Origin: an uncultured Candidatus Saccharimonadales bacterium
Lineage (GTDB): Bacteria > Patescibacteriota > Saccharimonadia > UBA4664
NCBI GenBank assembly: GCA_964467655.1
Contig: CAYXSN010000008.1
Location: forward strand, 78-64,077
Length of the DNA stretch: 64,000 bases
Direction: 5' to 3'
The position numbers and the translations under genes were made by a program. The notes beneath the pieces are model-generated. The model was not told where the DNA came from. It worked only from the letters and a program-made list of their open reading frames with translations, and did not search any database. Every line of letters starts with the position of its first letter. Within the stretch, counting starts at the first letter, position 1. Below, piece after piece: positions 6,104 to 58,586 of the stretch.

Positions 6104-6112
6104 ACAAAAACG

Positions 6113-6153
6113 CCCCCGGATACTCACAGTTGAAACACTGTGAGTATCCGGGG
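6113..6153 (-). terminator. rho-independent terminator (17-bp perfect stem CCCCGGATACTCACAGT, loop, then T-run on the minus strand)
   Basis: perfect inverted repeat at 6113-6153 followed on the minus strand by TTTTT (plus-strand AAAAA 6106-6110); lies downstream of the minus-strand genes 6163..6960. Confidence 0.7.
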
Positions 6154-6162
6154 AAGGGTCAG

Positions 6163-6552: not shown

Positions 6553-6558
6553 TTCACC

Positions 6559-6960: not shown

Positions 6961-7026
6961 CAGGCCTCCTTATTCTCTGAAAGAACAATCAGGATCGGCT
7001 AGTTATGGCATTAATTGCCAAAATGA

Positions 7027-7905: not shown

Positions 7906-7954
7906 ACAGTGCATCATACAGCAACCAAACGGTCTGATACACTTAATGTCAGGT

Positions 7955-43972: not shown

Positions 43973-44161
43973 GTTCATCATCATAGCAGACGGCTCGCAT
44001 ACCGTTGGTAATCATGAGTCGTGAGTGATTAAATGAGACCACTACCCGCGAGTGAGGAAAGGTCTCGTTATGAAATTGACGCGTATCGAAACTGACAACT
44101 CAGGCAATAGATGGAATAAATAACCGCCTAGGTTTGACCTACAAGTATTACTTGTAATACT

Positions 44162-44419
44162 ATGAACTTCATGCATCAACCTCACGCCATGTACCGTCTG
44201 GCCGGCACCGTTAGTGTCGGACCCAAGGGTCAGGTTGTCATTCCAGCCGAGGTTCGCGAATGCATGAATATCAGGCCAGGGGACAAGCTCATCGCTCTGT
44301 ACATCACGGCCAAGAACGCTATAGCCTTCATCACCGAGGACCAGGCACAAAAGCTGGTGGAGCACCTAGGCGCGCAGGCAACCGGCCTATCCAAATTAAT
44401 TGATACTGACAAAAACTAA
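44162..44419 (+). CDS. AbrB/MazE/SpoVT-type DNA-binding protein
   Basis: VGPKGQVVIPAEVRECMNIRPGDKL swapped-hairpin motif; start uncertain. Confidence 0.55.
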   Translation: MNFMHQPHAMYRLAGTVSVGPKGQVVIPAEVRECMNIRPGDKLIALYITAKNAIAFITEDQAQKLVEHLGAQATGLSKLIDTDKN

Positions 44420-44432
44420 ACGAGGGAAAACT

Positions 44433-46115
44433 ATGCTTCATCACATGTCACAGCGCGAAAAAATTATCGTCATGCTGGCCGTCATGAGTGGCTTATTTTT
44501 GGTCGCTCTCGATCAAACCATCATTGCCACCGCCCTCGGCAAAATCGTTGAGGAGTTCAAGAGTTTCTCGTCGCTCAGCTGGGTAGTAACCGCCTACCTA
44601 CTCACCACAACCGTCACCATTCCCATTGCCGGAAAGCTATCAGACCAGTTCGGCCGCCGTGTTGTACTCATGACAGGTGTTGCAGTGTTTACCGCAGGAT
44701 CGCTGCTGAGTGGAGCTTCGAGTAGTATCGAGCAACTCATTTGGGCCCGCGCCTTCCAGGGCCTCGGCGGTGGTATCATTACGGCCAACGCCTTTACGAT
44801 TATTGGCGACCTGTTTATGCCTCGTGAACGAGCTAAGTGGCAGGGGATGATTGCAGCTGTTTTTGGCCTAAGCTCACTGGTCGGGCCGTTATTAGGCGGC
44901 TTTCTGACCGATCCTCATCCGGTGCTTGGCCTGATCACCAACTGGCGCTGGACATTTTGGATCAACGTCCCCATTGGTATTGCCAGCTTTGCCGTTATCT
45001 CCATGTATGCGCCCAGTGTCCGCCGCTCCGAGAAGCCCAAAGTCGATTACCTTGGCGCCGGCCTCCTGGCAGTAGCTCTGGCCGCCTTGATTCTGGCTGT
45101 CGATAATACCGACAAGATCTTTGCCCCAATCATCGATGCCGGGTGGAACATCACAGGCATCAAAATCGCACTTTACGGCCTGTTTGTAGTCGCTTCTATT
45201 GGTTTCGTCTGGGCCGAAAAGCGGGCTGCCGAACCAATCATTCCTTTGCGCTTTTTCAAAAACCACAATTTCACCACGGTCATGGTGGCCGCCCTCTTGT
45301 TTGGTGCCGCCTTCTTGGGTGCCATATTGTACCTCACTCAATTTAACCAACAGGTCTTTGGGGCCAACGCGACAACTTCGGGTCTGATGATCTTGCCGAT
45401 GGTGGTTGGCCTGGCTTCCTGCGCCGCCATTACCGGTCAGTACGTCACTCGATCCGGCAAGTACAAATGGCCGATCGTGACAGGCTTTAGCGTGGCTACG
45501 GTAGCTGTCGGCCTATTGACCACCCTCACCCCTAGCTCACCCTACTGGCACGAGGCCATCCTTATGCTCATGGCCGGCGCGGGCCTGGGGGCGGGTATGC
45601 CCATTATGAACCTGGCGGTCCAGAACGAGTTCGAACAGCACGATCTGGGTGCGGCTACTTCTGCCAGCCAGCTTTTCCGGGGCCTGGGCTCTACCATCGG
45701 CACCGCAGTGTTTGGCAGTATCTTGGCCACCGGCATCACTACCCAGCTGGGCAACTTACAGGACAACGCCTACATTCAATCGTTACAACGCCAACCGGCC
45801 GCGGCCCAGTTATTGGGAGACCTCAACGCCGACACTGCCCTCAACCTCAACACTGCTGATGTCAAAAAAGCCGTTACAAATGGCGCCGCCCAGGCCTTGG
45901 CCAATGCTCCAGCGCCTGTCGCCGAACAAGCGCTCGCCAAACTCAAACAGCAACAAGATAGCTTTGCTCATGATGTTGTTGAAGCCTTCAGTCAGTCACT
46001 GCGGCCGGTCTTTGTGGCCGCGGCGGTCCTCATGTTGCTGGCAACACTGGCAGTTGCCCGCATCCGCGAAGGCAAATTGCGCAGCGGCCATGGTACTCCA
46101 GCCGAAATCAGTTAA
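44433..46115 (+). CDS. MFS transporter, DHA2 (EmrB/QacA-like, 14-TMS) drug:H+ antiporter family
   Basis: LDQTIIATALGKI, GRR motif, 14 predicted TM segments; RBS GAGGGA. Confidence 0.85.
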   Translation: MLHHMSQREKIIVMLAVMSGLFLVALDQTIIATALGKIVEEFKSFSSLSWVVTAYLLTTTVTIPIAGKLSDQFGRRVVLMTGVAVFTAGSLLSGASSSIEQLIWARAFQGLGGGIITANAFTIIGDLFMPRERAKWQGMIAAVFGLSSLVGPLLGGFLTDPHPVLGLITNWRWTFWINVPIGIASFAVISMYAPSVRRSEKPKVDYLGAGLLAVALAALILAVDNTDKIFAPIIDAGWNITGIKIALYGLFVVASIGFVWAEKRAAEPIIPLRFFKNHNFTTVMVAALLFGAAFLGAILYLTQFNQQVFGANATTSGLMILPMVVGLASCAAITGQYVTRSGKYKWPIVTGFSVATVAVGLLTTLTPSSPYWHEAILMLMAGAGLGAGMPIMNLAVQNEFEQHDLGAATSASQLFRGLGSTIGTAVFGSILATGITTQLGNLQDNAYIQSLQRQPAAAQLLGDLNADTALNLNTADVKKAVTNGAAQALANAPAPVAEQALAKLKQQQDSFAHDVVEAFSQSLRPVFVAAAVLMLLATLAVARIREGKLRSGHGTPAEIS

Positions 46116-46125
46116 GATATAACTC

Positions 46126-47097
46126 ATGAAAATGGATCAAGCTGGCCAGTTTGCGCCGACCCCTGAAAGTATCCAGGCTATCCTAACTGAATACAACTTG
46201 ACCCTCGGTCAATTTGAGCCAGCCATGAGCGGCATCGAAAATACGACCCTCTTGGTGGTCGCGCTGGCGCAGCAGTTTGTCCTCAGGGTGTACCGCCATC
46301 GTCGCAAGTCTGATGCCATGATTCGCCGTGAACTAGCCTTCATCAAATATCTGGCGGCAGCAGGTCTTCCGACAGTGCCCGCCATCGTCAATCGCGCCGG
46401 CCAAAGCTACACGAGATACGGCAAGTGGCGCGCCATCCTCATGCCGTTCCGGCCAGGCTATCACCCCTCGCACTACACAGCGGCACTTGTCAGTCAAATG
46501 GCTCAGACTCAAGCCACCATGCACCAGCTGGCGGCTCGCTTTGGCCGGCCGCCCCTCTGGGAGCTGCCGTTATTCAAATTGAAAGAAACCTACTTTCATC
46601 AACACATTGATCGGCGGCAAGACCTCAAGCCGGCTGTGAAAGATTTTTTGGACCGGGTGAAAAGCTTCAATTATCGACTCGATCATGGTTTACCCAAGGG
46701 GTATTGTCACCTCGACTTTAGCGCCGGTAACGTGCTAGTCGGTGGTAGCGGCGAGCTCGCTGCCATTCTGGATTTTGATGATTTGGCCCATGCACCATAT
46801 GTAGTCTGTCTGGGCTACACCTTATGGAGCCTATACCAGCAGGAAGACCCGCGCCTGTTTGCCCAATACCTGGAAGCGTATCAGGCAGTCAGGCCATTGA
46901 GTCAGGTCGAGCTGGCCAGCTTGCCGGCCGTCATGCTGTTTCGACATTATACGGTAGGTGCCATGAAGATTCTTGAGGGGACTATGGATGACCAGAAGAT
47001 TGGGCACTACGTCAGACTTGAGTCGCAGCTGGCTCGAGAATGCTACACTGAAAGCCTAACCTGTGAGAGGACGAACTATGGCTCAATCCACGACTGA
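46126..47097 (+). CDS. phosphotransferase enzyme family protein (APH / homoserine-kinase-II-like)
   Basis: GYCHLDFSAGNVLVGGSGELAAILDFDD (H-x-D-x4-N ... D-F-D). Confidence 0.75.
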   Translation: MKMDQAGQFAPTPESIQAILTEYNLTLGQFEPAMSGIENTTLLVVALAQQFVLRVYRHRRKSDAMIRRELAFIKYLAAAGLPTVPAIVNRAGQSYTRYGKWRAILMPFRPGYHPSHYTAALVSQMAQTQATMHQLAARFGRPPLWELPLFKLKETYFHQHIDRRQDLKPAVKDFLDRVKSFNYRLDHGLPKGYCHLDFSAGNVLVGGSGELAAILDFDDLAHAPYVVCLGYTLWSLYQQEDPRLFAQYLEAYQAVRPLSQVELASLPAVMLFRHYTVGAMKILEGTMDDQKIGHYVRLESQLARECYTESLTCERTNYGSIHD

Positions 47098-47557
47098 CAC
47101 TGTTTTCGACAAAATTGTCCGCGGCGATATACCGTCGTTTAAGGTTTGGGAATCAGCTACGCACCTTGCCTTTTTAACGCCATTTCCGAATACGCCAGGT
47201 TTTACCGTGGTGATTCCCAAAACTAACCAGGGCGACGACGTTTTTGAACTCGATGACATAGCCTATCAAGGCCTAATGTTGGCCGCCAAAACGGTTGCAG
47301 CCAAGCTCAAAAAAGCCTTGGGCGTAGCAAGAGTCGGGCTTGTATACGAGGGCACGGGCATACCATATGTTCATGCCAAGCTCATCCCGATGCATGGCGA
47401 CCTGGCAACCCAAACCGGTGTCTGGAGTAAGCACCAGGAATTTTATCCTGAATACGCGGGATACCTCACAACGGTCGAGGGGCCGAGGATGAGTGACGAC
47501 GAACTCAGGGCACTGCAAGAGCGAATATGCGGTGTGGTACCGTCTTCTGTGGACTAA
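47078..47557 (+). CDS. HIT-like nucleotide hydrolase/transferase family protein
   Basis: FDKIVRGDIPSFKVWESATHLAFLTPFP and YVHAKLIPMHG; overlaps the APH gene end. Confidence 0.55.
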   Translation: MAQSTTDTVFDKIVRGDIPSFKVWESATHLAFLTPFPNTPGFTVVIPKTNQGDDVFELDDIAYQGLMLAAKTVAAKLKKALGVARVGLVYEGTGIPYVHAKLIPMHGDLATQTGVWSKHQEFYPEYAGYLTTVEGPRMSDDELRALQERICGVVPSSVD

Positions 47558-47712
47558 GTTTCAAACCTTGCAGCAAAACTAGGCATAGACATCGTCACTT
47601 GGGTGACGGCTATTGACAAAGCCATACTTATTATAGTATGGTATTATTCGTCACAATCAAGTGGCCTGCGGCCATGCGCTGACATGGAGAGTCTCGGAAA
47701 GGTAGATGAATC

Positions 47713-48150
47713 ATGGCAGGTCTCGTATTCCTGGGCGGCACAGCGGCCAACAACCCCTGGCGCGACGGACTGATCAAGCGACTGGCTGCGCGCGGAGTAC
47801 CCCTTGAGTGTCTGTTCAACCCGGTGGTGCCCGACTGGAATGAGGCAGCGCGGATCGCTGAGGAGAACGCCAAGAAGGCTGCAACCGTGATGTTCTTCTG
47901 CATCGCCGACCCGCGGCAGGAGGGCAACCCCCTCTCGGCCTACTCCATGCTCGAGGTCACCATGGCGTTGTACGACCGTCCTGGGGTGACCGCAGTGGTG
48001 TTCGACACCACTGGCATGGTCGGGCATCCGCTCAAGGCTATGAACCAGGCCTTGAGGGCGCTCAAGGGCCGGTTCCCTGACGCCAACATCTTCAGCAGCA
48101 TGCAGGAAGCCGAAAACTGGCTGGTGGAGAAGCTGGCGAGCAGCGTCTGA
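47713..48150 (+). CDS. nucleoside 2-deoxyribosyltransferase-like (PF05014-like Rossmann) protein, very high GC3
   Basis: VFLGG...CLFNPVV...VVFDTTGMVGHPLKAMN pattern resembles NDT/PF05014; GC3 about 85%; candidate TTGACA -35 at 47615. Confidence 0.45.
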   Translation: MAGLVFLGGTAANNPWRDGLIKRLAARGVPLECLFNPVVPDWNEAARIAEENAKKAATVMFFCIADPRQEGNPLSAYSMLEVTMALYDRPGVTAVVFDTTGMVGHPLKAMNQALRALKGRFPDANIFSSMQEAENWLVEKLASSV

Positions 48151-48172
48151 GCAGCGTCTGAGCAGCGGCTCA
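48140..48172 (+). repeat. 11-bp tandem repeat (GCAGCGTCTGA) x2.8 spanning the stop codon of 47713..48150
   Basis: GCAGCGTCTGA GCAGCGTCTGA GCAGCGGCTCA. Confidence 0.6.
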
Positions 48173-48200
48173 AGGCGCTGACTTCAGACAACCTCATCTC

Positions 48201-48233
48201 AAGGGCCCGCGACAGCATTTTGTCGCGGGCCCT
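48201..48233. terminator. bidirectional hairpin GGGCCCGCGACA-gcatttt-TGTCGCGGGCCC between convergent genes
   Basis: perfect 12-bp GC-rich stem. Confidence 0.55.
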
Positions 48234-48243
48234 TCACTATTTA

Positions 48244-48930
48244 TTACCCCATCCACGGGGAGTCAAGCGCCTGTGGCACCCGCTGCTTAAACCGGAACAG
48301 TTGGGCTGGGCGATGCCTCCCGCCGCGCACCAGATCGCCTGTCGGTTCGACAAAACCCAGTGACAAATACTTTTTGCGGAAATTACGCTTGTCCACGGCC
48401 GCCCCAAACGCCACTTCATATACCGTCTGCAGATCACTAAACACAAATACTTCAGGGAGCAATGAATAGGCCGCGTTCGTGTAGGTCAGCTTCGACCGCA
48501 GCCGCTCAACCGCCACAGCAATAATCTCAGTGTGGTCAAACCCCAATGCCGGTAGTTCACTCACTGGTACAAACTCCACCTCAGCGGCTGGCTGCAGCTG
48601 GCTGGGAGCCGCCAGCGCTAGGTACGCAACACTAGTTACTCGACCGCGCGGATCGCGGTCAAGTGCGTCAAAGGTAGCCAGTTGCTCCAGAAACATACCA
48701 GATATTCCGGCTTTAGCTGACAGTAAACGTTCGGCACTCCGGCGAAACGTCTCACCGTCCCAGACAAAGCCTCCAGGTAAAACGAGGCTGCCAGTGAAAG
48801 GTTCGGCAGTACGCGGGATCAGCATAACTCGCAATTGACTATCAATAATCGTCAGTAACACCACGTCAGTAGTAAGCCTGATGGTAGCTAACCCGGGGCG
48901 TTCTGTAGAGGGCGTAATTGGTGGTTGCAT
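48244..48930 (-). CDS. nrtR: NrtR-like regulator (degenerate Nudix domain + C-terminal winged helix)
   Basis: Nudix-like PGGFVWDGETFRRSAERLLSAKAGI and C-terminal ...EVAFGAAVDKRNFRKKYLSLGFVEPTGDLVRGGRHRPAQLFRF typical of NrtR; start moved to MQPPITP (the longer ORF would cover the operator region). Confidence 0.55.
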   Translation of the reverse strand: MQPPITPSTERPGLATIRLTTDVVLLTIIDSQLRVMLIPRTAEPFTGSLVLPGGFVWDGETFRRSAERLLSAKAGISGMFLEQLATFDALDRDPRGRVTSVAYLALAAPSQLQPAAEVEFVPVSELPALGFDHTEIIAVAVERLRSKLTYTNAAYSLLPEVFVFSDLQTVYEVAFGAAVDKRNFRKKYLSLGFVEPTGDLVRGGRHRPAQLFRFKQRVPQALDSPWMG

Positions 48931-48950
48931 ACAAGAAATTATATCAAAAA

Positions 48951-48965
48951 GTGTAAAAAATACAC
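48951..48965. promoter_or_regulatory. palindrome GTGTA-AAAAA-TACAC overlapping the nrtR promoter (TATAAT at 48936-48941 on the minus strand)
   Basis: direct reading. Confidence 0.4.
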
Positions 48966-48973
48966 AATACCCC

Positions 48974-49035
48974 TTGACAAAGTGTAATGCAAACACTAAG
49001 TTGAGAGTATGGTTTGTGTGTGAATAACACAAACC
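48974..49035 (+). promoter_or_regulatory. pncA-like promoter TTGACA-N17-TAAGTT with palindrome GTGTAATGCAAACAC in the spacer, plus strong palindrome GGTTTGTGT-gtgaata-ACACAAACC (49011-49035)
   Basis: direct reading; both palindromes share the GTGT...ACAC core; RBS AAAGGAG precedes ATG 49072. Confidence 0.45.
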
Positions 49036-49071
49036 TGATCCTGAACAACCCACATCTCAAAGGAGCTAACC

Positions 49072-49926
49072 ATGACCACACGTGTGCATCTGGTGATCGT
49101 CGATCCCCAGGTTGACTTCATGGATACGCCCGGATCGGCATTGCCAGTTCCGGGTGCCACAGCCGACATGCAGCGGTTGGCCGCAATGGTACGCCGGCTC
49201 GGCGGCAGACTTGACGACATTCATGTCACCCTCGATAGCCACCATCTGGTGGACGTCGGGCACCCTGCCCTGTGGCGCAACGGCACTGACGGTACGCCGC
49301 CACCGCCGTTCACAGTCATCAGGGCGGATGACCTGCGCCATCGGCTGTGGGTGCCTCGCTTCGAGACCGCCAAGCCTCCGGCGCTCGATGGTCAAACAGT
49401 TGGCCAGTATCTGCTGAGCTACGCTGATACCCTCGAAGCCCAAGGTCGCCATCTCCTGATGGTCTGGCCGACGCACTGCCTCATTGGGAGTCCCGGTCAC
49501 AGCGTCCAGCTCGACTTGGCTCAGGCACTCAACGACTGGGCCGACGCACAATTCGCCAACATCGACTGGGTCGTCAAGGGTACCAATCCATGGACAGAGC
49601 ACTACGGTGCCGTGCATGCGGAAGTGCCCATGCCCACAGACCCGTCAACCGCTCTCAACACCCGCTTCCTCGAAGTGTTGGAGGCAGCCGATCTGGTGGT
49701 ATTCGCCGGTGAGGCACTGTCTCACTGCGTGCGTGAAACCGTCAGGCAAGTGGCCGATAATCTCGGCGACAAGGCTGTACAAAAGCTGCACCTAGTGACC
49801 GACTGCACTTCAAGCATTCCTGCCACCCCCGGCGGGCCCGACTTCCCGGCCATGACCCAAGATTGGCTGGACGACATGACAGCTCGGGGCTTGCAGTTGA
49901 CCACTTCCGAGGCATTTCTGGCCTAA
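49072..49926 (+). CDS. pncA: nicotinamidase/pyrazinamidase-like cysteine hydrolase (isochorismatase family, PncA-like with insertion)
   Basis: LVIVDPQVDF, WPTHCLIGSPGH, FAGEALSHCVRET (catalytic Cys) closely parallel PncA. Confidence 0.65.
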   Translation: MTTRVHLVIVDPQVDFMDTPGSALPVPGATADMQRLAAMVRRLGGRLDDIHVTLDSHHLVDVGHPALWRNGTDGTPPPPFTVIRADDLRHRLWVPRFETAKPPALDGQTVGQYLLSYADTLEAQGRHLLMVWPTHCLIGSPGHSVQLDLAQALNDWADAQFANIDWVVKGTNPWTEHYGAVHAEVPMPTDPSTALNTRFLEVLEAADLVVFAGEALSHCVRETVRQVADNLGDKAVQKLHLVTDCTSSIPATPGGPDFPAMTQDWLDDMTARGLQLTTSEAFLA

Positions 49927-49955
49927 ACCTACCCGATCGAAAGGACGTGCTCATC

Positions 49956-50738
49956 ATGCCAAAGCTCACCCCTGACCCCGGCGACGCCGGTCTGCAGGCC
50001 CACACGATTCCCGGTTCCACCTTTGGTTTCACTGCTGCCCGCATCGGCGACCTTGGCGCCACCGAGTACACGCTGGCCACCATCGTGGTGGATGTCACAG
50101 GCTCGACCGAGGGCTTCACCGACGACTTGCGGCGTATGCTGGAGGCCACAATCGAGGCGTGCCAGCGCTCGCCCCGACGGGAGCACTTGCTGGTGCGAGT
50201 GGTGTTGTTTTCAACTCGCTTTCAGGGTCACATTCAGGAGCTACACGGTTTCAAGCCGTTGGCCGACATCGACCCTGCTGGTTACCCGCGGTTGGTGGCC
50301 GGCGGCGCCACCCCGCTATGGGACGCCACCTATGATGCTGTTGGTGCGGTAGCTGAGTACGGCCGCCAACTGACGGAAGCCGACTATGGCACCAATGCCA
50401 TAGTCTTCGTCATCACCGACGGCCAGGAAGGTGACGGCTGGGGGAAGCCGGTGTCAGTCATGCGACCGGCGAATATTGCCCAGCAGTTGCGCGATATCGT
50501 CGCCAAGGAGTGGCTCGAGTCGGTAGTAACAGTGCTCATTGGCATCAATGCTACTGACTGCCGAAACGCGTTGGAGCGCTTCCAGCAGGACGCCGGCTTC
50601 ACCCAGTACACCGATGTGGCCGATGCTACTTCGGCCAACCTGGCCAAGCTGGCGGCCTTCGTCAGCCAGTCGATCGTCAGCCAGAGTCAGGCTCTCGGTA
50701 CCGGCGGGCCGTCGCAGGCCATCTCGGCTACCATCTGA
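49956..50738 (+). CDS. von Willebrand factor A (vWA, TerY-like) domain protein
   Basis: MIDAS-like VVDVTGSTEG, GGATPLWDA, FVITDGQEGDG; RBS AAAGGA before ATG 49956. Confidence 0.7.
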   Translation: MPKLTPDPGDAGLQAHTIPGSTFGFTAARIGDLGATEYTLATIVVDVTGSTEGFTDDLRRMLEATIEACQRSPRREHLLVRVVLFSTRFQGHIQELHGFKPLADIDPAGYPRLVAGGATPLWDATYDAVGAVAEYGRQLTEADYGTNAIVFVITDGQEGDGWGKPVSVMRPANIAQQLRDIVAKEWLESVVTVLIGINATDCRNALERFQQDAGFTQYTDVADATSANLAKLAAFVSQSIVSQSQALGTGGPSQAISATI

Positions 50739-50819
50739 ACCGCGACGCTAGGCGTCCAACCAATGGGGTGGTGAGGCAAGCATACTTGTCTCACCACCCC
50801 CTTCTCATTTGGAGGTATC

Positions 50820-51671
50820 ATGACCACCACGTTCCAGACAGACTCACACTTCGTCCTCGGTTCACTTCATAGCTCCAGCGGCCAACCTTGCCAGGACTAT
50901 GCCACCAGTGGTCAGTTGGAATCAGCGGCCTACGCTATTGTGGCTGATGGTTGCTCCAGCGGCGGCCAGACAGATGTCGGCGCCCGTATCACGGCACTAG
51001 CCATGGCTGAGGCTCTGAGGATACAGAGTAAGCTCCATCATCAGATAGGAGAAGCTCAGATCCAAACTCTCACAGCTCAGCAATTAGCCATCATGGTAGC
51101 CACAGGCCATTTGCTCAATCTCACACCCGCCGATTTACTGGCTACCTGTCTTGTTGCCTACCAAAGTCATCAAGGCGGCTGGGCCTATCTGCGTGGTGAC
51201 GGTCTCGTGATCTGGCACACTGCTGCCGGAGAGCAGCTGGCAGTGCGTGTCGAATGGAGTCCGGACAACCCGGACCGGGCCGCACCGTTCTACCCAGCTT
51301 ATGCCATTGGCGATATCGCCGGCTTTGTCGAGCACTATGGTGGGCCCGAAGTACTGGCATATCGCGTCGAACACTGGCGTTTGGCCCCGGGCAAACCACT
51401 GTGCCTGTCATCGCAGCTTCAAACTGTGAGTGAAGGCCTTGCTGGCACATTCGTGACCTTGCCTGCCGACACTCAAACAGTAGCCGTCGTCAGTGACGGT
51501 TCCTGTCAGATAGAGGGTCTGGATTGGCAGGAAGCAGCTAGGCAGCTGACCAGTTTCAAAACAACTGCCGGCGCCTTTGCCATCCGGCGCCTCATGAGGT
51601 TCGTCAAAGCCAATCAGGCAATCGGTCGTCGGCCACTCGATGATCTGGCGCTGGCTGTCATTCGACGCTAA
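50820..51671 (+). CDS. PP2C-family Ser/Thr protein phosphatase
   Basis: HSSSGQPCQDYA ... AYAIVADGCSSGGQTDVGARI (PP2C motifs 1-2), downstream Asp-containing motifs. Confidence 0.7.
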   Translation: MTTTFQTDSHFVLGSLHSSSGQPCQDYATSGQLESAAYAIVADGCSSGGQTDVGARITALAMAEALRIQSKLHHQIGEAQIQTLTAQQLAIMVATGHLLNLTPADLLATCLVAYQSHQGGWAYLRGDGLVIWHTAAGEQLAVRVEWSPDNPDRAAPFYPAYAIGDIAGFVEHYGGPEVLAYRVEHWRLAPGKPLCLSSQLQTVSEGLAGTFVTLPADTQTVAVVSDGSCQIEGLDWQEAARQLTSFKTTAGAFAIRRLMRFVKANQAIGRRPLDDLALAVIRR

Positions 51672-51718
51672 GGCTGTCGTCTGCGGGGCAAAAAAGAGTG
51701 TCCAATGGAGGAATCAAA

Positions 51719-53452
51719 ATGAAACTCAACCATCTAACCGGCTTCCATCTCGATGGTCATGGTCCTGTCAAACTGAGTACCAAGCATCATCTGGCCACCG
51801 GCGGCGAAGCCTCAGTCTACCGGCTCGATACGCTGGCCATCAAACTCTACACCGATACTGGGCGCCTCAGCCAGCCCGGCATGATCGGCAGGATCCAATC
51901 GCTCACAGAACTGCGCCATCCGGGAGTAACGGCACCGCGCGGCCTCGTGACTACAACGACGGGCAGACCGGTTGGCTACTGGATGGATTTTGTCGACCAA
52001 GCTGAAGCGTTGCCCTCAGTGTGCACCAACGACTTCCGTCGTCGAACCAGTTTTGATGACAACCAAGCGTCCAAACTGGTTGGCGCCATGTTCGGCGTCA
52101 TGAGCTACGCTCATGGAGCTGGGGCCATTATGGTTGACCCCAACGAGCTCAACTGGGCGATCACCAGCCAGAACCGTTCGTATCGGCCCCGGGCACTCGA
52201 TGTTGATGCCTGGGTGCTGGGAAATTACACTCCGAGCAGCGTAGCCGTTATGCCATCCATCCGTGATTGGCATTCAGCTGGCATCGGCCAGGCAGCCGAT
52301 CGTTTCGGCCTGGCAGTTGTGACGTTCCAGGTATTTACCGGCATTCACCCCTACAAGGGTACGCTCGATGGCTATCGTCGAGGCGATCTAGTACGGCGCA
52401 TGCAAGATAACGCCTCAGTGTTCACGCCAGGCGTGCGCCTAAACCAGGCAGTACGTGATCCAGGCCGCATTCCCCGTCGACTCCTCGACTGGTATAAGGG
52501 TGTTTTTGATCATGGCGATCGCAGCGATCCACCATCAAAGTGGACAGCCTCAGCCGTGCCAAGCCAGAATATAGTGACGAAGCGCATCGCGGCAACGGCT
52601 GGAGGCAAGTTAACCTACACCCGAGTCTATGAGTCAATCGGTGACCCTGTTGTTCAGGTGTATGGCTGCGGCGTCGTCAAGCTGGCATCAGGTAAGCTGG
52701 TTGATCTGGCAACCGAGCGAGTGCTCTACACCACGACTGCAGCACGAGTACAAGTAACAACAGTTGAATCAGGCTGGCTCATAGCCGAGCTGGAACCAGA
52801 GCCACAGTTCAACTTTGTCTCCAAGGTACCTCAACCGGTACAGCCTCTGAGCCTGGGTATCGACATCTCAGAGCTCGTCTCCTATCAGAACCGGCAGTTT
52901 GTGGTTACGCCTCAGGGTTTGACCGAACTGCTCGTCAAACATTTCGCTCGGCCGGTTCTGACTACGGGTCGTATCTGGCAAGCCACCAGCACAGCTACCC
53001 GTTGGTACGACGGTGTTGGTATCCTCGATGCTATGGGCGCGACGTTTGTAATCGCACCGTTCGGAGAAGGATCCTGCGCCATCATCCGCGTGCCCGAACT
53101 AGATGGTCAACGAGTAATAGCGGCCATCTCTGGGCCACGCTGCGTGGTGCTGTCTGCGATGCAGACCAACGGTTCGTACCACCACGTGGAGTTGGTATTC
53201 GACCGCTCCTATACCAGCTACCAGATCAACCAGACTGAGGTTGACACCCCTCAGCTGAACCGCGCCATTTTGCCGAAAGGAGTCATGGTCGCCATCATCG
53301 AAGATGGTGAGATTGTCATCACAGTTCCTACTACCGGCGACCGCCGCCTGGTACATGACAGCCAAGCTCTAACAAGCTTGGCTCTGGCTTCATGGGGTAA
53401 TCGGGCGGTAGCCATCCGCGATGGCGCACTGTGGCAGCTCCAGCTGGCCTAG
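51719..53452 (+). CDS. Ser/Thr protein-kinase-like protein with about 300-aa C-terminal extension
   Basis: glycine loop ATGGEASVYRL, VAIK-like LAIKLY, catalytic loop HGAGAIMVDPNELN, DFG-like LDVDAW; RBS GGAGG before ATG 51719. Confidence 0.65.
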   Translation: MKLNHLTGFHLDGHGPVKLSTKHHLATGGEASVYRLDTLAIKLYTDTGRLSQPGMIGRIQSLTELRHPGVTAPRGLVTTTTGRPVGYWMDFVDQAEALPSVCTNDFRRRTSFDDNQASKLVGAMFGVMSYAHGAGAIMVDPNELNWAITSQNRSYRPRALDVDAWVLGNYTPSSVAVMPSIRDWHSAGIGQAADRFGLAVVTFQVFTGIHPYKGTLDGYRRGDLVRRMQDNASVFTPGVRLNQAVRDPGRIPRRLLDWYKGVFDHGDRSDPPSKWTASAVPSQNIVTKRIAATAGGKLTYTRVYESIGDPVVQVYGCGVVKLASGKLVDLATERVLYTTTAARVQVTTVESGWLIAELEPEPQFNFVSKVPQPVQPLSLGIDISELVSYQNRQFVVTPQGLTELLVKHFARPVLTTGRIWQATSTATRWYDGVGILDAMGATFVIAPFGEGSCAIIRVPELDGQRVIAAISGPRCVVLSAMQTNGSYHHVELVFDRSYTSYQINQTEVDTPQLNRAILPKGVMVAIIEDGEIVITVPTTGDRRLVHDSQALTSLALASWGNRAVAIRDGALWQLQLA

Positions 53453-53469
53453 CCGCCATTGCACTGCCG

Positions 53470-53509
53470 GTTCAGGTTCTCGTCAACACAAGAGAGCCTG
53501 AACCGGTCA
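53470..53509. terminator. hairpin CCGGTTCAGG...CCTGAACCGG (10-bp stem) between convergent genes; also the approximate right edge of the accessory island
   Basis: direct reading; left arm GGTTCTCGTC loosely resembles the GGTTCTAACGTCGTCC repeat. Confidence 0.45.
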
Positions 53510-53547
53510 CACCTAATACTACTTTGATTAACCCGCCAATGATCGCG

Positions 53548-54108
53548 TTAGGCTTTGACAGTCCGGCGTATCCGCAGACGCCCGACCAATCCCCGCACCA
53601 GACCAGGGCCATACACGGCTAAGGTAAACAGCGCCGGAACCGCCACCAAATTACCAATCAAGTTCATCCGATAAAACGGCAATGCCATTATGTAGCAGTC
53701 AACCAATCCGGCCCAGGTATGCTCGTACATAGTACCGGTTAGCCACACGCCAAAGTTTGTGTACACAAAGAAAAACAGCGCCGATAGTATGCCACCAGCG
53801 GTACCCGCCAGCACCAAACGGCCGCCCTGCCAACGCCGCAGATACAGGCCGCTCAAACCGATCAGTGCAAACGCCGACCAAGTGAAGGTCAAAATAGGGG
53901 AATTGCCCATGATAAGATCCCCGGCCACCATCACGCTCAGAGGCACCACCAATGCCGCCCGCCGCGGCAGCATGGCCGCTGCTACCAAGCTAGCAGCCGT
54001 TACGAGCTCAAACCCTGGAGCTATCATGTGCTGGTAATTAAACACCCGCCACCCTAAAGCCAGCACCACCAAAACAATGGCGGCATACCATTTTTTATCA
54101 ATCGACAT
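53548..54108 (-). CDS. small polytopic membrane protein (candidate ECF-type substrate-capture component, CbrT-like)
   Basis: 5-6 TM helices, about 186 aa; position in a cobO/DUF4430 cluster next to nrdJ; function inferred from context only. Confidence 0.4.
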   Translation of the reverse strand: MSIDKKWYAAIVLVVLALGWRVFNYQHMIAPGFELVTAASLVAAAMLPRRAALVVPLSVMVAGDLIMGNSPILTFTWSAFALIGLSGLYLRRWQGGRLVLAGTAGGILSALFFFVYTNFGVWLTGTMYEHTWAGLVDCYIMALPFYRMNLIGNLVAVPALFTLAVYGPGLVRGLVGRLRIRRTVKA

Positions 54109-54171
54109 GAGACCCCCTATTAAATAATTACGCAACGTGCTCTATCAGCATAGCACGCCCCGATCGTAAAA

Positions 54172-54555
54172 TTAATAACTCTTAAGTTGCCAGGTAATAC
54201 TCTCATCGCCGCGGCAAATGTAAGCCGAAGGATCCTGATCAACGAGCCGCCCGTCTACCCAAAACGACCACTGCTCGTGCCTGGCCAGCTCAGCTTGCCG
54301 GCCATTTATACCGGTGACGTATTTGGCACCACCGACCTGGCGGATATCAACCACAGCCTTCTGCTGCAGCACCTCCAGCGCCGTCATACCCTCGACGCCG
54401 GTCAGGGTAAACTCAGCCGGGCTCATATCCCTCAATGCAGTTGCGGCTTCGGCGACTGAAACCGGCTCACTGCTCACAAGAGGCAGTGCTGAACTGACGG
54501 TTAATACTATGCCCACCGCCGCCGTCGCCCACCACCAAACGTTGCGAGTCGTCAC
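54172..54555 (-). CDS. secreted DUF4430 (transcobalamin beta-domain-like) protein
   Basis: signal peptide; C-terminal ...GGAKYVTGINGRQAELARHEQWSFWVDGRLVDQDPSAYICRGDESITWQLKSY. Confidence 0.55.
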   Translation of the reverse strand: MTTRNVWWWATAAVGIVLTVSSALPLVSSEPVSVAEAATALRDMSPAEFTLTGVEGMTALEVLQQKAVVDIRQVGGAKYVTGINGRQAELARHEQWSFWVDGRLVDQDPSAYICRGDESITWQLKSY

Positions 54556-54649
54556 GAGAGTATACCTCTTATCTAATCAACGTCCAAAATTCTAGAGTTA
54601 TCAACCAGATAACGCAAGCATAAGCCTATCTGAGCAGTGGCGGCTCGGT

Positions 54650-55204
54650 CTAGTAGTCGATCGTTTTGCGGGCCAAAATGCCGGCGTCATACGGGTGTTT
54701 AACTTTTCGCATCTCGGTCACCAGATCGGCCCGTTCAATCAGCGGCGTTAGATCAAGGCCTTTGTGGCCGGTCAAAACTAGATCGATCTCGGGCGGTCGG
54801 GAATCGGCTAGTTCAACTACTGCCGCCAACGGCAACAGCCCGCCAGTGACGCAGCCGATGATCTCGTCTAGCACAACCACATCATAGGCTCCCGAAGCGA
54901 GCTTTCTGGCTGCCAGCTCCAGGGCGGCCCGGGCTGCTTCCACGTGCTCGGTTTCCGGTAGCTTATCGCCGAGTATCTTGTAGAAGCCTTTGCCCGCCTG
55001 TATAAATTCGACATTTGGCAGGTGCTCGAAGCCGCCTTTTTCACCGGTAAACCATGTTTTTACAAACTGAATAACGAGCACCCGTTTGCCATAGCCGGCT
55101 GCCCGTAGCGCCAAGCCCATGGCGGCCGTTGTTTTACCCTTACCATCGCCGGTGTATAGGATGAGCAATCCGCGATCTGATTCGTGCAGCTCTGGTTCAG
55201 CCAT
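54650..55204 (-). CDS. cobO: cob(I)yrinic acid a,c-diamide / corrinoid adenosyltransferase (CobO/BtuR/CobA type)
   Basis: P-loop LILYTGDGKGKTTAAMG, VLDEI, 184 aa. Confidence 0.8.
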   Translation of the reverse strand: MAEPELHESDRGLLILYTGDGKGKTTAAMGLALRAAGYGKRVLVIQFVKTWFTGEKGGFEHLPNVEFIQAGKGFYKILGDKLPETEHVEAARAALELAARKLASGAYDVVVLDEIIGCVTGGLLPLAAVVELADSRPPEIDLVLTGHKGLDLTPLIERADLVTEMRKVKHPYDAGILARKTIDY

Positions 55205-55302
55205 GACGCCTGTCTCCTTGTGTTATTTACAGACTAGTGATGTAAATGGTATTCTAGGCCAACGCACCTTCAACGTCTACTCTTTCGACTAGTGGAGCCG
55301 TC

Positions 55303-55806
55303 ATGGGAATACACCCGCTGCGGGTGAAAGTTCGCACGCTCTGGCGTTATCGGAAGCAGCGTGCCAAAATCCCTGGTATTTTAGCCATTCGCTACCTGGC
55401 TATTGTCAGCTGGCTAGCAGTGGCGGGAATAGCCATCATCATCTACTACTGGATGGGTGGTCTTGCGGTGAGCATGGTGCTACCGTTCATAGTCTATGTG
55501 ATAATCGTGATCCACGATTATCGGCGTCGGCTTGAAAACCGCTATTTGCTTGACCAGTACCGCCAGGATTACTGGGTCGGCCGATCGTGGTTCTACACAT
55601 GCGTCATCAACCTTCTCTGGGCGATCTTCATCATCCTCACCATCATCGTGACCGGTGTCGCCATCAGGATTGTTCTAGGATATGGGCGCAGCGACACCCT
55701 CCTTACCGCCTACATCATGAGTACTATCTTGGTACTCCTATCCGGCAGCCAACGGTATCTTGCACTGATGCTGAAACCAAGCCGCCGATCGGACTCGTCG
55801 AGATGA
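55303..55806 (+). CDS. hypothetical membrane protein (4 TM)
   Basis: 167-aa ORF, hydrophobic. Confidence 0.35.
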   Translation: MGIHPLRVKVRTLWRYRKQRAKIPGILAIRYLAIVSWLAVAGIAIIIYYWMGGLAVSMVLPFIVYVIIVIHDYRRRLENRYLLDQYRQDYWVGRSWFYTCVINLLWAIFIILTIIVTGVAIRIVLGYGRSDTLLTAYIMSTILVLLSGSQRYLALMLKPSRRSDSSR

Positions 55807-55874
55807 CGAAAGCCGACTTGTACCTGCCACACCACCCCCAGGACGTTCGTCCTGGGGGTTCTTTTGTGGTCAAA

Positions 55875-58586
55875 CTAGCACTTACTAAAACCGCAGATCT
55901 CGCATTTTTGGCAGCCTTCAATGAATCGCAAAGAGGCGTTACCGCAATCTGGGCACATGTCAGCCAGGTGCGCCGATTCGCTCCGGTCGTGAACAGCTCC
56001 AGGTGCGGGGCTGCCGGCGGTGCCGTTGAGAACGCCCGCCGCCGCTTCAGCTGCTGCCGCCCCGCTGCCGCCGCCCATCAGTGCTCCCGCCGCAGCCATG
56101 CTGGCGAGCTGAGCCGCCTGAGGACCAGATACGGGTTCATTGCTATTCTTGGCTGTTTCGTGCTCGCGCAACACCTTGGCGACGGCGTCGGCCAGACTGC
56201 GCACCCGGGCTTGACCAAATCCCGCCGAGCTTGATCCACCAATGCCGCTGAGCTGATCGATCACATTTTGGGCGATCCGGTCCGAGGCAAATGTGCTCGG
56301 AATGCGGAATGATAGGGAGATAAGTCGTCCCATAGCTTCGGCATCCGCCATGATGTCCGATCCGGCCCGACCCAATCCGATAAATACCTCGAAGATATTG
56401 CCGCTGTCATCTTCGTTAATCGTGATGTACGCGTTACCGATTGGAGTAGCCACTTTGTATGTTTTGCCATTGAGAGTCTCGGGCCGTTGCTTCATAGCTA
56501 CTGGTACACCCATGAGGGCTTTATCACCAGCTTTGACGACTTTACCTGCCAGCTGGTCGTAGTACGAACCCTCTTTCTTGGTCTCCAAGATCTGCTTGTC
56601 CCGTGAGCCATCACGGTAGATGGTGATACCTTTGCAACCAGATTCAAAGACCTGCCAATAGGCGTCGCGCACGTCCTGGACGGTGGCGTCATTGTTGAAG
56701 TTGATCGTTTTGGAAATAGCGTTATCAACATACTTTTGGAAAGCAGCTTGCATGTTGATGTGTTGGCTCGGGGTGATGTCGCCGGCCACCACAAAGGTGC
56801 GGCGCAGGTCTTCGGGCAGATCGGTCATGCTCTGGATAGAGCCTTTATTCTGCTGCACCCGCTCCAGCAACTCTTCACTATAGAGGCCGCGTTTCTTGAG
56901 CTCGGCTTCGAAGTAGCGGCTCGATTGGAACATCCGTTTGCCCTCGATGGTGTTCTTGGCATAGGTGAGGGCAAAGAGCGGCTCGCAACCACTGGAACAG
57001 TCGGCCAGCATGGCGGTGGTGCCAGTGGGCGCAATGGTGGTCCGGGCGCCGTTGCGCGGGCGGATCTCGCCGGGCTTGTCGTAAATGCTACCTTTAAAGG
57101 CCGGGAAGACGCCGCGTACCCGGGCCATGTCAACCGATGCGTTATCTGATTCCTGCTGGATGAACTTCATGACGCGTTCGGCGGCGTCGGTGCCTTCCTT
57201 GGTGTTGTAACCAATGCCGAGATCAAGCAATGCATCAGCAAAACCCATGATACCCAATCCAATGCGGCGGATAGCACGCGTGGTCACCCGGACCTGCTCG
57301 ATCGGGTATTCGTTCATATCGAGAACGTCATCGAGGAATCGGGTGCCAATATGCACCATAGTCTTGAGTCGCGACCAATCAAAATCGGTCTTTTCGGCAT
57401 TGACGAATTTGCTCAAGTTAATCTGGCCCAAGGTACAGGCGTCGTAGGGCAGGAGTGGTTGCTCACCGCATGGGTTGGTGGCCTCAATCATGCCCAATTG
57501 AGGCGTCGGGTTGGCCCGGGAGTTATTAATCCGGTCAACCATGATCATACCCGGGTCACCGTAGCGCCAGGCTAATCGGGTGATAATGTCGTACAGTTTC
57601 TTGGCATTGAGTCGGCCAGCCACAGCTCCAGTGCGCGGATTGATGAGCTCATATCCTTTGTTGGGATCAGATTCATCACACCATTCATGTAATTTTTTGA
57701 CGGCAGCGTCCAGGCGCACAATCTTAAGATCAGGATCACGCAACTTGAGGGCTTCCTGGGCCTCGTTGATGACAGCCTCAAAATCAAATCCAGCCTCATA
57801 ATCTGCGGGCAGCGAGGCCGCATCGCGTTTAACCGCCTCAAAGAAGTCTTCGTCGACTGTCACCGAGATATTGAAGTTAGTGAGGCTAAATTCATCTACT
57901 TTGTAGACAGCAAACATCAAAATATCTGGATGGGTATAGTGCAAAATGCCCATGTTGGCGCCGCGTCGTACCCCGCCCTGCCTGATGCTTGAGGTGATAT
58001 CGTTGTACGTCTGCATGAAAGCCACAGGGCCAGTAGTTTTGCCGCCGGATGAGGCAATGATGTCATCTTTGGGTCGTAGGCGGCTAAACGAAAAGCCAGT
58101 ACCACCGCCACTCTTGTGAATGCGCGCCATATCCATGGCCGATCCCAAGATGCCGTCGAGGTCATCGGGCACCGGCAGGACAAAACACGCCGAGAGTTGT
58201 TGATTAGGCTTGCCCGCGTTCAGCATCGTCGGCGTATTGGCCACAAATTCTTGCCGAGCCATGGTCATATAGAATTCGCGGGCCATTTCCAGATGGGTTT
58301 CGCGTGGGTTCTCACTGTACAAACGCTCAGCCGTCGCAATGTTATAGCTGATACGCCATAGCATTTGCTTGGGTGATTCGATAGGATTACCAGCCTTATC
58401 GCGGAAGGCGTAGCGGGTTTTACCAATGTACCAGGCATTTTCTGAATAACGAGGTTCAGGCAGGTCATCGGGTGCAGCCGGAATCTGCTTACCGATGACG
58501 TACAATTCTTCAAGCCGCTCCCGGTCCTCGGGCGTTTCCGCCACAATATTGTTGGCCAAAATGGCCTCTGGTGTACTAGTAGCCAC
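55875..58586 (-). CDS. nrdJ: adenosylcobalamin-dependent ribonucleoside-diphosphate reductase, class II
   Basis: 903 aa; NAGKPNQQLSACFVLPV, SGGGTGFSFSRLRP, C-terminal CPDCGN...CQKCEICGF zinc ribbon. Confidence 0.9.
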   Translation of the reverse strand: MATSTPEAILANNIVAETPEDRERLEELYVIGKQIPAAPDDLPEPRYSENAWYIGKTRYAFRDKAGNPIESPKQMLWRISYNIATAERLYSENPRETHLEMAREFYMTMARQEFVANTPTMLNAGKPNQQLSACFVLPVPDDLDGILGSAMDMARIHKSGGGTGFSFSRLRPKDDIIASSGGKTTGPVAFMQTYNDITSSIRQGGVRRGANMGILHYTHPDILMFAVYKVDEFSLTNFNISVTVDEDFFEAVKRDAASLPADYEAGFDFEAVINEAQEALKLRDPDLKIVRLDAAVKKLHEWCDESDPNKGYELINPRTGAVAGRLNAKKLYDIITRLAWRYGDPGMIMVDRINNSRANPTPQLGMIEATNPCGEQPLLPYDACTLGQINLSKFVNAEKTDFDWSRLKTMVHIGTRFLDDVLDMNEYPIEQVRVTTRAIRRIGLGIMGFADALLDLGIGYNTKEGTDAAERVMKFIQQESDNASVDMARVRGVFPAFKGSIYDKPGEIRPRNGARTTIAPTGTTAMLADCSSGCEPLFALTYAKNTIEGKRMFQSSRYFEAELKKRGLYSEELLERVQQNKGSIQSMTDLPEDLRRTFVVAGDITPSQHINMQAAFQKYVDNAISKTINFNNDATVQDVRDAYWQVFESGCKGITIYRDGSRDKQILETKKEGSYYDQLAGKVVKAGDKALMGVPVAMKQRPETLNGKTYKVATPIGNAYITINEDDSGNIFEVFIGLGRAGSDIMADAEAMGRLISLSFRIPSTFASDRIAQNVIDQLSGIGGSSSAGFGQARVRSLADAVAKVLREHETAKNSNEPVSGPQAAQLASMAAAGALMGGGSGAAAAEAAAGVLNGTAGSPAPGAVHDRSESAHLADMCPDCGNASLRFIEGCQKCEICGFSKC

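Follow-up and report, generated by a model that had tools for sequence, protein, structure and literature searches.

In a stretch of 64,000 nucleotides from contig CAYXSN010000008.1 of an uncultured Candidatus Saccharimonadales bacterium (called the window in the following, and the source of all positions unless another locus is named), three co-directional open reading frames (ORFs) of the plus strand at 49956–53452 code for a vWA protein, a PP2C phosphatase and a kinase. A first interpretation made from the DNA letters (the sequence-only reading) had compared them to the TerY-P phosphorylation triad, reportedly described by Anantharaman, Iyer and Aravind in 2012; the reading frames and the motifs quoted there are present. 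By comparing loci we could show that the three genes are the last three of a conserved four-gene cassette, which is opened by a gene for a predicted nicotinamidase and lies divergently to the regulator gene nrtR. The following features are found:

48244–48930, minus strand: nrtR, regulator with Nudix and NrtR winged-helix domains, divergent from the cassette (Pfam NrtR_WHD E=1.5e-20, NUDIX E=6.7e-9)
48948–48968, 48979–48999 and 49013–49033, no strand: three tandem 21-bp NrtR-type palindromes with GT-N7-AC core (weight matrix, palindrome count)
49072–49926, plus strand: predicted long-form PncA-like nicotinamidase, 284 aa, first gene of the tetrad (PDB profile matches, invariant residues)
49956–50738, plus strand: vWA protein, putatively TerY/YegL-like, 260 aa, with intact metal-ion-dependent adhesion site (MIDAS) (AlphaFold2 model, PDB structure matches, alignment)
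50765–50800, plus strand: 16-bp GC-rich hairpin (16 pairs, 10 of them G-C) followed by CTTCTCATTT, terminator-like or attenuator (hairpin scan)
50820–51671, plus strand: Ser/Thr phosphatase of the PP2C_2 family, PphC-like, 283 aa (Pfam, hhalign to PphC)
51719–52528, plus strand: atypical Hanks-type protein kinase domain, YegI-like, residues 1 to about 270 (alignment, model, Pfam in relatives)
52610–53452, plus strand: C-terminal all-beta domain of the kinase, residues about 298–577 (AlphaFold2 model, pLDDT about 90)

The kinase alignment was scanned against one genome per species, which yielded 80 loci, and the neighbouring genes were placed by tblastn. The count of the tetrad was restricted to the 70 loci having at least 3 kb of DNA 5′ of the kinase gene. 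All 70 carry, on one strand, the order PncA-like nicotinamidase, vWA, PP2C and kinase, so that the synteny of the three signalling genes is kept wherever it could be tested. These loci cover Patescibacteria, Proteobacteria, one cyanobacterium and one Desulfobacterota genome. The median intergenic gaps are 48 bp (pncA–vWA), 78 bp (vWA–PP2C) and 43 bp (PP2C–kinase). The families are also of similar size, with 1928 homologues found by the nicotinamidase query and 1749 by the vWA query, and the kinase profile retrieves 942 representatives at E≤1e-30 from a library clustered at 50% identity, of which the best 150 are nearly all full length. In the databases the proteins of the tetrad are mostly annotated as "hypothetical protein".

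The first protein of the cassette is predicted to convert nicotinamide to nicotinate. In the PDB a profile of 25 homologues matches exclusively nicotinamidases (29iv 1.8e-8, 2h0r 4.9e-8, 3pl1, 1ilw), which include yeast Pnc1 (2h0r) and the enzymes of M. tuberculosis (PncA, 3pl1) and P. horikoshii (1ilw). Seven residues are invariant in the alignment of these 25 homologues; by the numbering of M. tuberculosis PncA we take D11, K169 and C219 to be the catalytic triad and D55, H57, H64 and H135 to be the metal ligands. The family has a length of 270–290 aa compared to about 180–220 aa of canonical PncA. The extra segment falls between H64 and W132, and with the spacing that we presume for the M. 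tuberculosis enzyme the insertion between the third and the fourth metal ligand is estimated at about 55 residues. The Pfam Isochorismatase model stays below its threshold for the window protein (24.4 vs 27 bits) with a match confined to residues 191–259. This shortfall together with the length of 284 aa points to a divergent long form of PncA. Members of the cluster are named "nicotinamidase/pyrazinamidase" by JGI. Two loci have a second long-form gene without the triad behind it (L038 12862–13734 and L053 6340–7182, in one case between nrtR and nadM), from which it follows that the long form also occurs as an ordinary salvage gene.

For the vWA protein the Pfam VWA model remains below the cut-off when the window protein is scanned alone (E=9e-4, 19.9 vs 23.8 bits), and a PDB profile search with the vWA alignment gave no match; the fold was settled by structure prediction. 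The AlphaFold2 model has a pLDDT of 89.7, and the PDB structures listed as its matches are vWA and integrin I domains (ITIH1, TFIIH p44, integrin alpha-M, NorD). The MIDAS-like motif which had been noticed before is genuine, as D46-x-(T/S)-x-S50, T119 and D155 are invariant in sets of 25 and 38 vWA homologues. JGI labels the cluster members "YegL", and the alignment to E. coli YegL by hhalign is weak (36% probability, E=3.8e-4). The C-terminal segment is rich in Ser and Gln and is invariant (FVSQS.SSQSQALGTGGPSQ). A role of this tail as free phospho-acceptor peptide was considered and is kept as a lead only, as the tail is mostly terminal helix in the model.

A MIDAS protein next to a metal enzyme raises the question of metal delivery or maturation. 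Here the vWA protein would use its MIDAS to supply or replace the metal in the active site of the nicotinamidase, much as vWA partners of MoxR-type ATPases mature metalloenzymes, and the kinase and the phosphatase would time this step. The four invariant metal ligands with the unusual insertion between the third and the fourth are in line with such a role, as are the NorD vWA domain among the structural matches and the fact that the pncA-like and vWA genes stay adjacent where the pair of PP2C and kinase genes has moved. Moreover, according to PMC11090510, TerY-P was first proposed as a metal-sensing switch. Nevertheless, none of the loci has an AAA+/MoxR ATPase in the cassette, and nothing points to a need of canonical nicotinamidases for a chaperone; this putative role is unlikely.

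The phosphatase is the only protein of the triad in the window which is recognized by Pfam itself (PP2C_2, E=8.9e-16). The metal-binding Asp set of PP2C enzymes is invariant in the alignment (D26, D43, D127, D226, D274, D275), and hhalign relates the protein to E. coli PphC with 93% probability (E=2.8e-7); a PDB profile search with the PP2C alignment gave no match.

The kinase ORF can start at GTG 51698 (584 aa) or at ATG 51719 (577 aa), the latter being the start of an identical database protein. A Pfam scan of the window kinase gave no match, but Pkinase is matched by 23 of 33 members of the family, and the AlphaFold2 model (pLDDT 88.7, pTM 0.88) retrieves eukaryote-like protein kinases by Foldseek (LRRK2, Aurora B, IRAK4, BRAF). 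Profile searches support the assignments of the sequence-only reading to a different extent, directly for PP2C, through relatives for the kinase and below threshold for vWA, and the PP2C and kinase folds are both upheld. Conservation is complete or almost complete at the glycine loop G28-G29-E30, at K42, at D140 and the N145 that follows it by five residues, and at D161-V-D163. The αC region is devoid of an invariant Glu, the sequence of the catalytic loop is (M/L)VDxNELN, and DVD(S/A)W stands in the place of DFG. The kinase domain aligns to E. coli YegI over residues 25–215 (hhalign, 96.7% probability, E=3.6e-10), and there is a weak match to PknI. Judged from these alignments the kinase appears to be atypical in the way of YegI. 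As the catalytic and metal-binding residues of the kinase, of the phosphatase and of the MIDAS are intact, the proteins look active.

Some enzymes with a kinase fold act on small molecules, and the context of the cassette is entirely NAD metabolism, with a gene of the APH family nearby (46126–47097). The kinase and the phosphatase could then form a pair with a pyridine nucleoside or nucleotide as substrate instead of proteins, such as a nicotinamide riboside kinase and a phosphatase of nicotinamide mononucleotide (NMN). We regard this as very improbable. The kinase keeps further features of protein kinases, namely the activation-segment region, a DxW(F)xxG motif resembling subdomain IX and GxHPY; its structural neighbours are protein kinases, and so is its closest characterized relative YegI. 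PP2C enzymes are protein phosphatases, and the vWA protein would be left without a role.

The sequence-only reading had described a C-terminal region of the kinase of 300 aa as uncharacterized. This region is real, and no Pfam family was matched by it in 33 members of the kinase family. The structure prediction places 28 beta-strands in residues 298–577, and we read these approximately 280 residues as a beta-propeller with seven blades of four strands each, presumably a sensor or docking domain. No Cys-rich ribbon is visible in the kinase alignment. The best whole-chain matches in the PDB are LRRK2 chains comprising the kinase and WD40 domains (611–648 aligned columns). Like our model, the C-terminal half of human LRRK2 has a protein-kinase domain directly followed by a seven-bladed propeller; with 11–12% identity and an rmsd of about 25 Å over both domains this is an analogy of architecture only, and a common descent of the propellers is unsupported.

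The closest characterized homologues of the triad are yegI, pphC (yegK) and yegL of E. coli K-12. YegI and PphC have been characterized biochemically as kinase and phosphatase (bioRxiv 10.1101/819920, 10.1101/303594). The window proteins have in common with them the GGEG.VY glycine loop and the Ser-rich end of the vWA protein. On the other hand, gene order and orientation in E. coli are unlike those of the cassette, with yegJ interposed, no alignment is obtained between the propeller and the C-terminal half of YegI, and neither a nicotinamidase gene nor NrtR stands beside these genes. In the published TerY-P triads, too, the genes of a vWA protein of the TerY/YegL kind, a PP2C_2 phosphatase and an atypical Ser/Thr kinase stand side by side, and their products presumably form a reversible phosphorylation switch around the MIDAS protein. 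The kinase tails described in PMC11090510 are a zinc ribbon in CoCoNuT systems and an OB fold in the Gao 2020 system, whereas a seven-bladed propeller is predicted here. In addition, published triads adjoin McrBC, DNA-processing or type VII secretion genes (PMC11090510, PMC4978471). The present cassette is preceded by a nicotinamidase gene and accompanied by NrtR and NAD genes instead of ter, McrBC/CoCoNuT, DNA-processing or type VII secretion genes, and it is mainly found in Patescibacteria. We suggest that the triad is a distant homologue of YegL/PphC/YegI, for which the label "TerY-P-like" is reasonable. The identification as a TerY-P triad thus holds as far as this homology goes, but the unit comprises four genes and the kinase tail is not of the OB-fold or zinc-ribbon type.

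It had further been stated that no phenotype is established for such triads. This is not the case, as TerY-P-like modules are reported to act as stand-alone defence against T7-like phages (Gao 2020, according to the citing passages of PMC11090510 and PMC7699616). For the cassette itself a role in defence or abortive infection has no direct support: scans of all four window proteins with PADLOC at E≤0.01 and at E≤10 gave no match, the TerY model PDLC02224 included, and an NCBIfam scan gave nothing relevant. As E. coli YegL itself reaches the TerY model only at E=0.032, the negative PADLOC result excludes close kinship only.

Could the three genes be an independent TerY-P defence triad that merely stands beside NAD genes without a functional tie to the nicotinamidase? 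Its homology to YegL/PphC/YegI and the mildly raised GC content over the cassette would fit. Such a coincidence is hardly credible, as the pncA-like gene accompanies the triad at short distance and with a common NrtR-type operator in all 70 loci, which come from several phyla; the predicted propeller in place of the OB fold or zinc ribbon of TerY-P kinases and the absence of any PADLOC match for the window proteins also speak against it.

The connection to NAD metabolism is seen most directly in front of the cassette. The nrtR ORF extends to 49053, and gene callers place the start at 49032 or similarly (262 or 252 aa in L006 and L097). The first 41 residues of the long ORF look non-protein-like, and the homologue in the Niyogibacteria locus L003 has 223 aa. 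We consider ATG 48930 (MQPPITPST..., 228 aa) to be the probable start, as longer versions would put the three operator boxes inside the coding sequence. NrtR is described as binding a 21-bp palindrome with a GT-N7-AC core (PMC2330246). The third box (49013–49033) is a perfect 7+7+7 palindrome located 59 bp before the ATG of the nicotinamidase gene. When palindromes are counted that have this core and match in six or more of the 7 arm positions, 35 of 71 loci contain one within −300 to +30 of the start of the pncA-like gene, and about 3 are expected from the background of 0.134 sites/kb. With a weight matrix at ≥10 bits there are three matches in the entire 64-kb window, and all of them lie in the 141-bp spacer between nrtR and the pncA-like gene. 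Across the loci, matrix matches are also found upstream of nrtR (21), pncB (16), nadM (6) and nadE (6), and the motif has the consensus TTAGTGTA-N5-TACACTAA. The palindrome count, which follows the consensus from the literature, and the matches at the other NAD genes are both independent of the training set of the matrix.

A promoter can be read by eye in the spacer, weakly, as TTGACA (48974–48979) and TAAGTT (48997–49002) separated by 17 nt which are filled by the second box; a sigma-70 promoter scan listed no promoter upstream of the pncA-like gene, and hence not this one. An Rfam scan of 44000–56000 at E≤1 gave two sub-threshold chance matches and no NAD riboswitch. Another perfect 21-bp palindrome with GT-N7-AC core (CAGTGGTGTTCGACACCACTG, 47993–48013) is situated inside a gene related to nucleoside deoxyribosyltransferases (NDT-like gene); as its score with the NrtR matrix does not reach 10 bits, NrtR probably does not use it as a site.

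Further genes of NAD salvage accompany the cassette. At least one of nrtR, pncB, nadE, nadM/D or prs is present within the fetched DNA in 55 of 82 loci; nrtR is present in 38 of the 82 and lies at most 700 bp upstream in 16. In 12 loci pncB or nadM directly follows the kinase gene on the same strand. The complete Niyogibacteria genome (L003) has all of them on one strand in the order nrtR–pncA-like–vWA–PP2C–kinase–nadM–pncB–prs–nadE. Outside the Patescibacteria a divergent nrtR is found in Agitococcus, Desulfosudis and Thiodictyon, in the latter two together with pncB. This organization resembles the NrtR-regulated pncA–pncB operons described by Rodionov et al. (2008; PMC2330246), which have a divergent or adjacent nrtR, 21-bp operators before the nicotinamidase gene and pncB, nadD/M, nadE and prs nearby. 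The differences are the three signalling genes directly behind pncA and the long form of the nicotinamidase of 270–290 aa; the regulon tables of 2008 contain no kinase, phosphatase or vWA gene (PMC2330246). From the operators and the gene neighbourhood we assign the cassette to the NAD-salvage regulon of the ADP-ribose-responsive NrtR, with binding of the operators predicted. The observation of the sequence-only reading that the triad is next to NAD-salvage genes is therefore correct, and the neighbourhood is systematic and not an accident of the position in an island.

The junction between the vWA and PP2C genes has a property that the other junctions lack to a large extent. Windows of 90 nt centred on each gene junction were folded, and a z-score below −2 was obtained in 77% of the loci for vWA–PP2C (median −3.4), in 38% for pncA–vWA and in 1% for PP2C–kinase. 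The intergenic region of the window folds at −40.9 kcal/mol. The hairpin is kept in position but not in sequence, and many of the junction hairpins look like textbook intrinsic terminators, for example, GGGGCGGC...GCCGCCCCTTTTTTT. Between the hairpin and the PP2C start there are 20–40 nt, which include the ribosome-binding site. As this leaves no room for a separate promoter, we suggest that the two distal genes are expressed by read-through of a leaky terminator, so that nicotinamidase and vWA protein would outnumber phosphatase and kinase. The same division two by two appears in divergent phage copies (LR745208, L095), where the pncA-like and vWA genes are separated from the PP2C and kinase genes by 3–6 kb. 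The three Bradyrhizobium loci (L074, L077, L078) have a deviating arrangement: the gap between PP2C and kinase is 400–650 bp instead of the usual 40 bp or so, a strong hairpin between vWA and PP2C is missing and there are no NAD genes within 10 kb.

Taken together we suggest, with a probability of roughly 0.55, that the functional target of the triad lies in NAD salvage and that the cassette is a nicotinamidase module which is under the control of NrtR and is gated by reversible phosphorylation on Ser/Thr. This proposal builds on what is observed at the loci, that is, the gene order, the homologies, the conserved catalytic and metal-binding residues, the NrtR-type operators, the link to NAD genes and the position of the hairpin; the partial termination, the identity of the substrate and the effect on the activity of the nicotinamidase are what we infer. 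When NAD is consumed, ADP-ribose would free NrtR from the three operators at 48948–49033 and the operon would be transcribed. The hairpin behind the vWA gene would let pass only some of the transcripts, so that nicotinamidase and vWA protein would be in excess over phosphatase and kinase. The steps beyond transcription are proposed from domain logic and gene order. The kinase may sense or dock a partner or ligand by means of its propeller and may phosphorylate the vWA protein, the nicotinamidase or both; the MIDAS of the vWA protein would then capture or release its partner and thereby switch the nicotinamidase activity. Such a switch would set the flux from nicotinamide over nicotinate and further through PncB, NadD/M and NadE to NAD, as well as the level of free nicotinamide, and the PP2C phosphatase would reset it. 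The signalling switch envisaged by the sequence-only reading would in this way persist as a kinase–phosphatase switch on NAD salvage and not as a stray defence module.

Several points weigh against this proposal. The links among the four proteins and to the nicotinamidase activity are read from the genes, and the closest characterized triads act in antiphage defence and not in metabolism. A recognizable operator is found directly upstream of the pncA-like gene in about half of the loci only, and the matrix count at this gene is circular, as the matrix was trained on those upstream sites. No NAD gene is found in the fetched DNA of 27 of the 82 loci, among them the three of Bradyrhizobium; for some of the others this DNA is short. 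By a strict count 33 of 71 junction hairpins are followed by 9 nt with five or more T, and the hairpin could be a full terminator or a mere stabilizer of the mRNA. Finally, in the model most of the Ser-rich segment of the vWA protein belongs to the terminal helix, not to a free tail, and the segment may not be a phospho-acceptor.

The sequence-only reading considered the triad unexpected in a small, reduced genome. According to the record titles, about 55 of the 80 species-level loci belong to Patescibacteria (Saccharimonadales, Parcubacteria and many others), and the cassette is therefore rather characteristic of small genomes. The remaining loci are from Proteobacteria, one Thermosynechococcus and one Desulfosudis; the proteobacterial carriers are Methylococcaceae, Rickettsiales, Micavibrio, Bdellovibrionales, three Bradyrhizobium, Agitococcus and Thiodictyon. 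The titles of six loci (L018, L027, L039, L049, L069, L076) name predatory or obligately associated lineages (Micavibrio, Bdellovibrionales, Pseudobdellovibrionaceae, Rickettsiales), which may reflect a dependence on salvaged NAD precursors or mis-binned contigs of metagenome-assembled genomes.

That the cassette is part of a horizontally acquired island, as had been proposed, is unproven. The closest relative of the window kinase (87% identity; the next kinases from Saccharimonadales have about 50%) is surrounded by the same gene order, with an MFS transporter, APH, HIT, the NDT-like gene and nrtR upstream and cobalamin-handling genes, ribonucleotide reductase, thioredoxin reductase and MurB downstream. 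The GC content over the cassette is only mildly raised (0.59–0.61 vs about 0.55). In Patescibacteria the cassette resides within ordinary NAD-salvage operons and beside housekeeping genes, for example, rpoB, ftsW and ribonucleotide reductase. Among the loci with annotated neighbours no defence genes were seen, with one exception, a GmrSD_N-like gene by a huge-phage copy. In the plasmid collection only an 800-kb replicon of Variovorax carries a copy, which is partial and divergent (PP2C–kinase–pncB near MazG-like, NADAR and NadE genes), and there is no sign of a plasmid-borne cassette.

Copies of the cassette are also found on viral sequences. The huge phage LR745208 (485 kb) has the complete set of four genes. 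In LR756511 (595 kb) vWA, PP2C and kinase are present, and a pncA-like gene was not found within the DNA that was fetched. The kinases of both phages are 26–28% identical to the window kinase over 97–98% of its length. The top viral match of the window kinase is a kinase of 550 aa from a gut Myoviridae phage, which aligns end to end (E=1.3e-24). Of seven IMG/VR contigs, six have the tetrad in its ordinary contiguous form, and one of these six coincides with the Bradyrhizobium scaffold L074; for these reasons the six are probably cellular and not phage. The cassette of LR745208 (L099) has as neighbours genes for Nudix, Macro and GmrSD_N proteins, an NDT-like protein of 405 aa and a metallophosphoesterase. 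Its vWA and PP2C genes are separated by ORFs of 592 and 211 aa (6048–7826 and 7910–8545) without Pfam match, which may be extra partners of the phage version.

The phage copies suggest an NAD-centred conflict module, in which the triad would sense infection or an NAD-depleting attack and would switch the nicotinamidase for defence or counter-defence. Either nicotinamide would be removed, starving the NAD reconstitution of a phage, or NAD would be rebuilt faster, which would be the purpose of the huge-phage copies. Such a role would agree with the divergent full-length copies in LR745208, LR756511 and the IMG/VR contig L095, with the neighbours of the cassette in L099, with the gut Myoviridae kinase of the same architecture and with the MazG-like, NADAR and NadE genes beside PP2C–kinase–pncB on the Variovorax replicon. 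In addition, TerY-P-like triads have been published as stand-alone antiphage systems and as accessories of McrBC-type systems (PMC11090510, PMC7699616), and NrtR senses ADP-ribose, a product of NAD-degrading defence systems (PMC2330246; PMC9503650). The known phage-carried sets that restore NAD are comparable to the huge-phage cassette among its Nudix, Macro and NDT-like genes, but NARP1 (Adps/Namat), NARP2 (Nampt/Nmnat) and NARP3 (PnuC/NadR-like) rely on other enzymes and do not comprise a nicotinamidase, vWA, PP2C or kinase. The failure of PADLOC models to match the four window proteins even at E≤10, the salvage operons and housekeeping genes around the cassette in Patescibacteria, where annotated neighbours include no defence genes, and the probably cellular origin of six of the seven IMG/VR contigs speak against a conflict module. 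We think that it is rather unlikely, but regard it as the main rival of the nicotinamidase module gated by phosphorylation.

If this gated module exists, it might amount to an undescribed layer of NAD homeostasis, in which a kinase–phosphatase pair and a MIDAS adaptor toggle a nicotinamidase, hard-wired into the NrtR regulon, in about 1000 protein clusters, mainly of host-dependent Patescibacteria, and acquired by huge phages. This wider view is put forward tentatively, and the odds seem to be somewhat against it. TerY-P/YegIKL triads are widespread, and a physiological substrate was not found named in the literature examined. What is new here is a triad of this type with a predicted propeller as kinase tail, a fixed enzyme partner (the nicotinamidase) and a defined regulator (NrtR). 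As the chemistry of the partner and the regulator are both known, the question of the substrate becomes directly testable; if the proposal is true, it would assign a first metabolic target to these triads and tie the class to the battlefield of phages and bacteria over NAD. A full-text literature search, which did not cover the original description of TerY-P, found no paper linking a nicotinamidase with a vWA protein or TerY. Patescibacteria are thought to depend on salvaged precursors for NAD, and a conserved control module on the first step of salvage would bear on this dependence. The huge-phage copies among Nudix, Macro and NDT-like genes could be a further route for phages to manipulate NAD beside NARP1–3.

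Some observations concern the genes around the cassette. The NDT-like gene beside nrtR (47713–48150, plus strand) codes for a protein of 145 aa with a sub-threshold match to Nuc_deoxyri_tr2 (27 vs 30 bits). The protein of 405 aa near the huge-phage cassette (L099 14711–15928) matches the same family above threshold (E=1.1e-10), and in the remaining loci no NDT-like gene was found by tblastn. This gene could be a second, looser link to NAD or nucleosides. A 15-bp GC-rich hairpin at 48201–48234 lies between the convergent NDT-like gene and nrtR, which ends at 48244 on the minus strand, and looks like a bidirectional terminator; a sub-threshold Rfam match to STnc380 overlaps this hairpin and is probably due to chance.

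Downstream of the cassette, on the minus strand at 53548–58586, genes for DUF6580, DUF4430, a corrinoid adenosyltransferase of the CobA/BtuR type and a ribonucleotide reductase of 903 aa stand in a row. The ribonucleotide reductase of the 87% relative has lgN, lgC and TSCPD domains, and the row appears to be a set of cobalamin-handling genes that supply a B12-dependent reductase. On the upstream side (44162–47557, plus strand), a small MazE/AbrB-like gene overlaps the listed TTG start of the MFS transporter, which is followed by the APH-family phosphotransferase (46126–47097) overlapping a HIT-family gene by 35 nt. This MazE/AbrB–MFS–APH–HIT block is also kept in the 87% relative.

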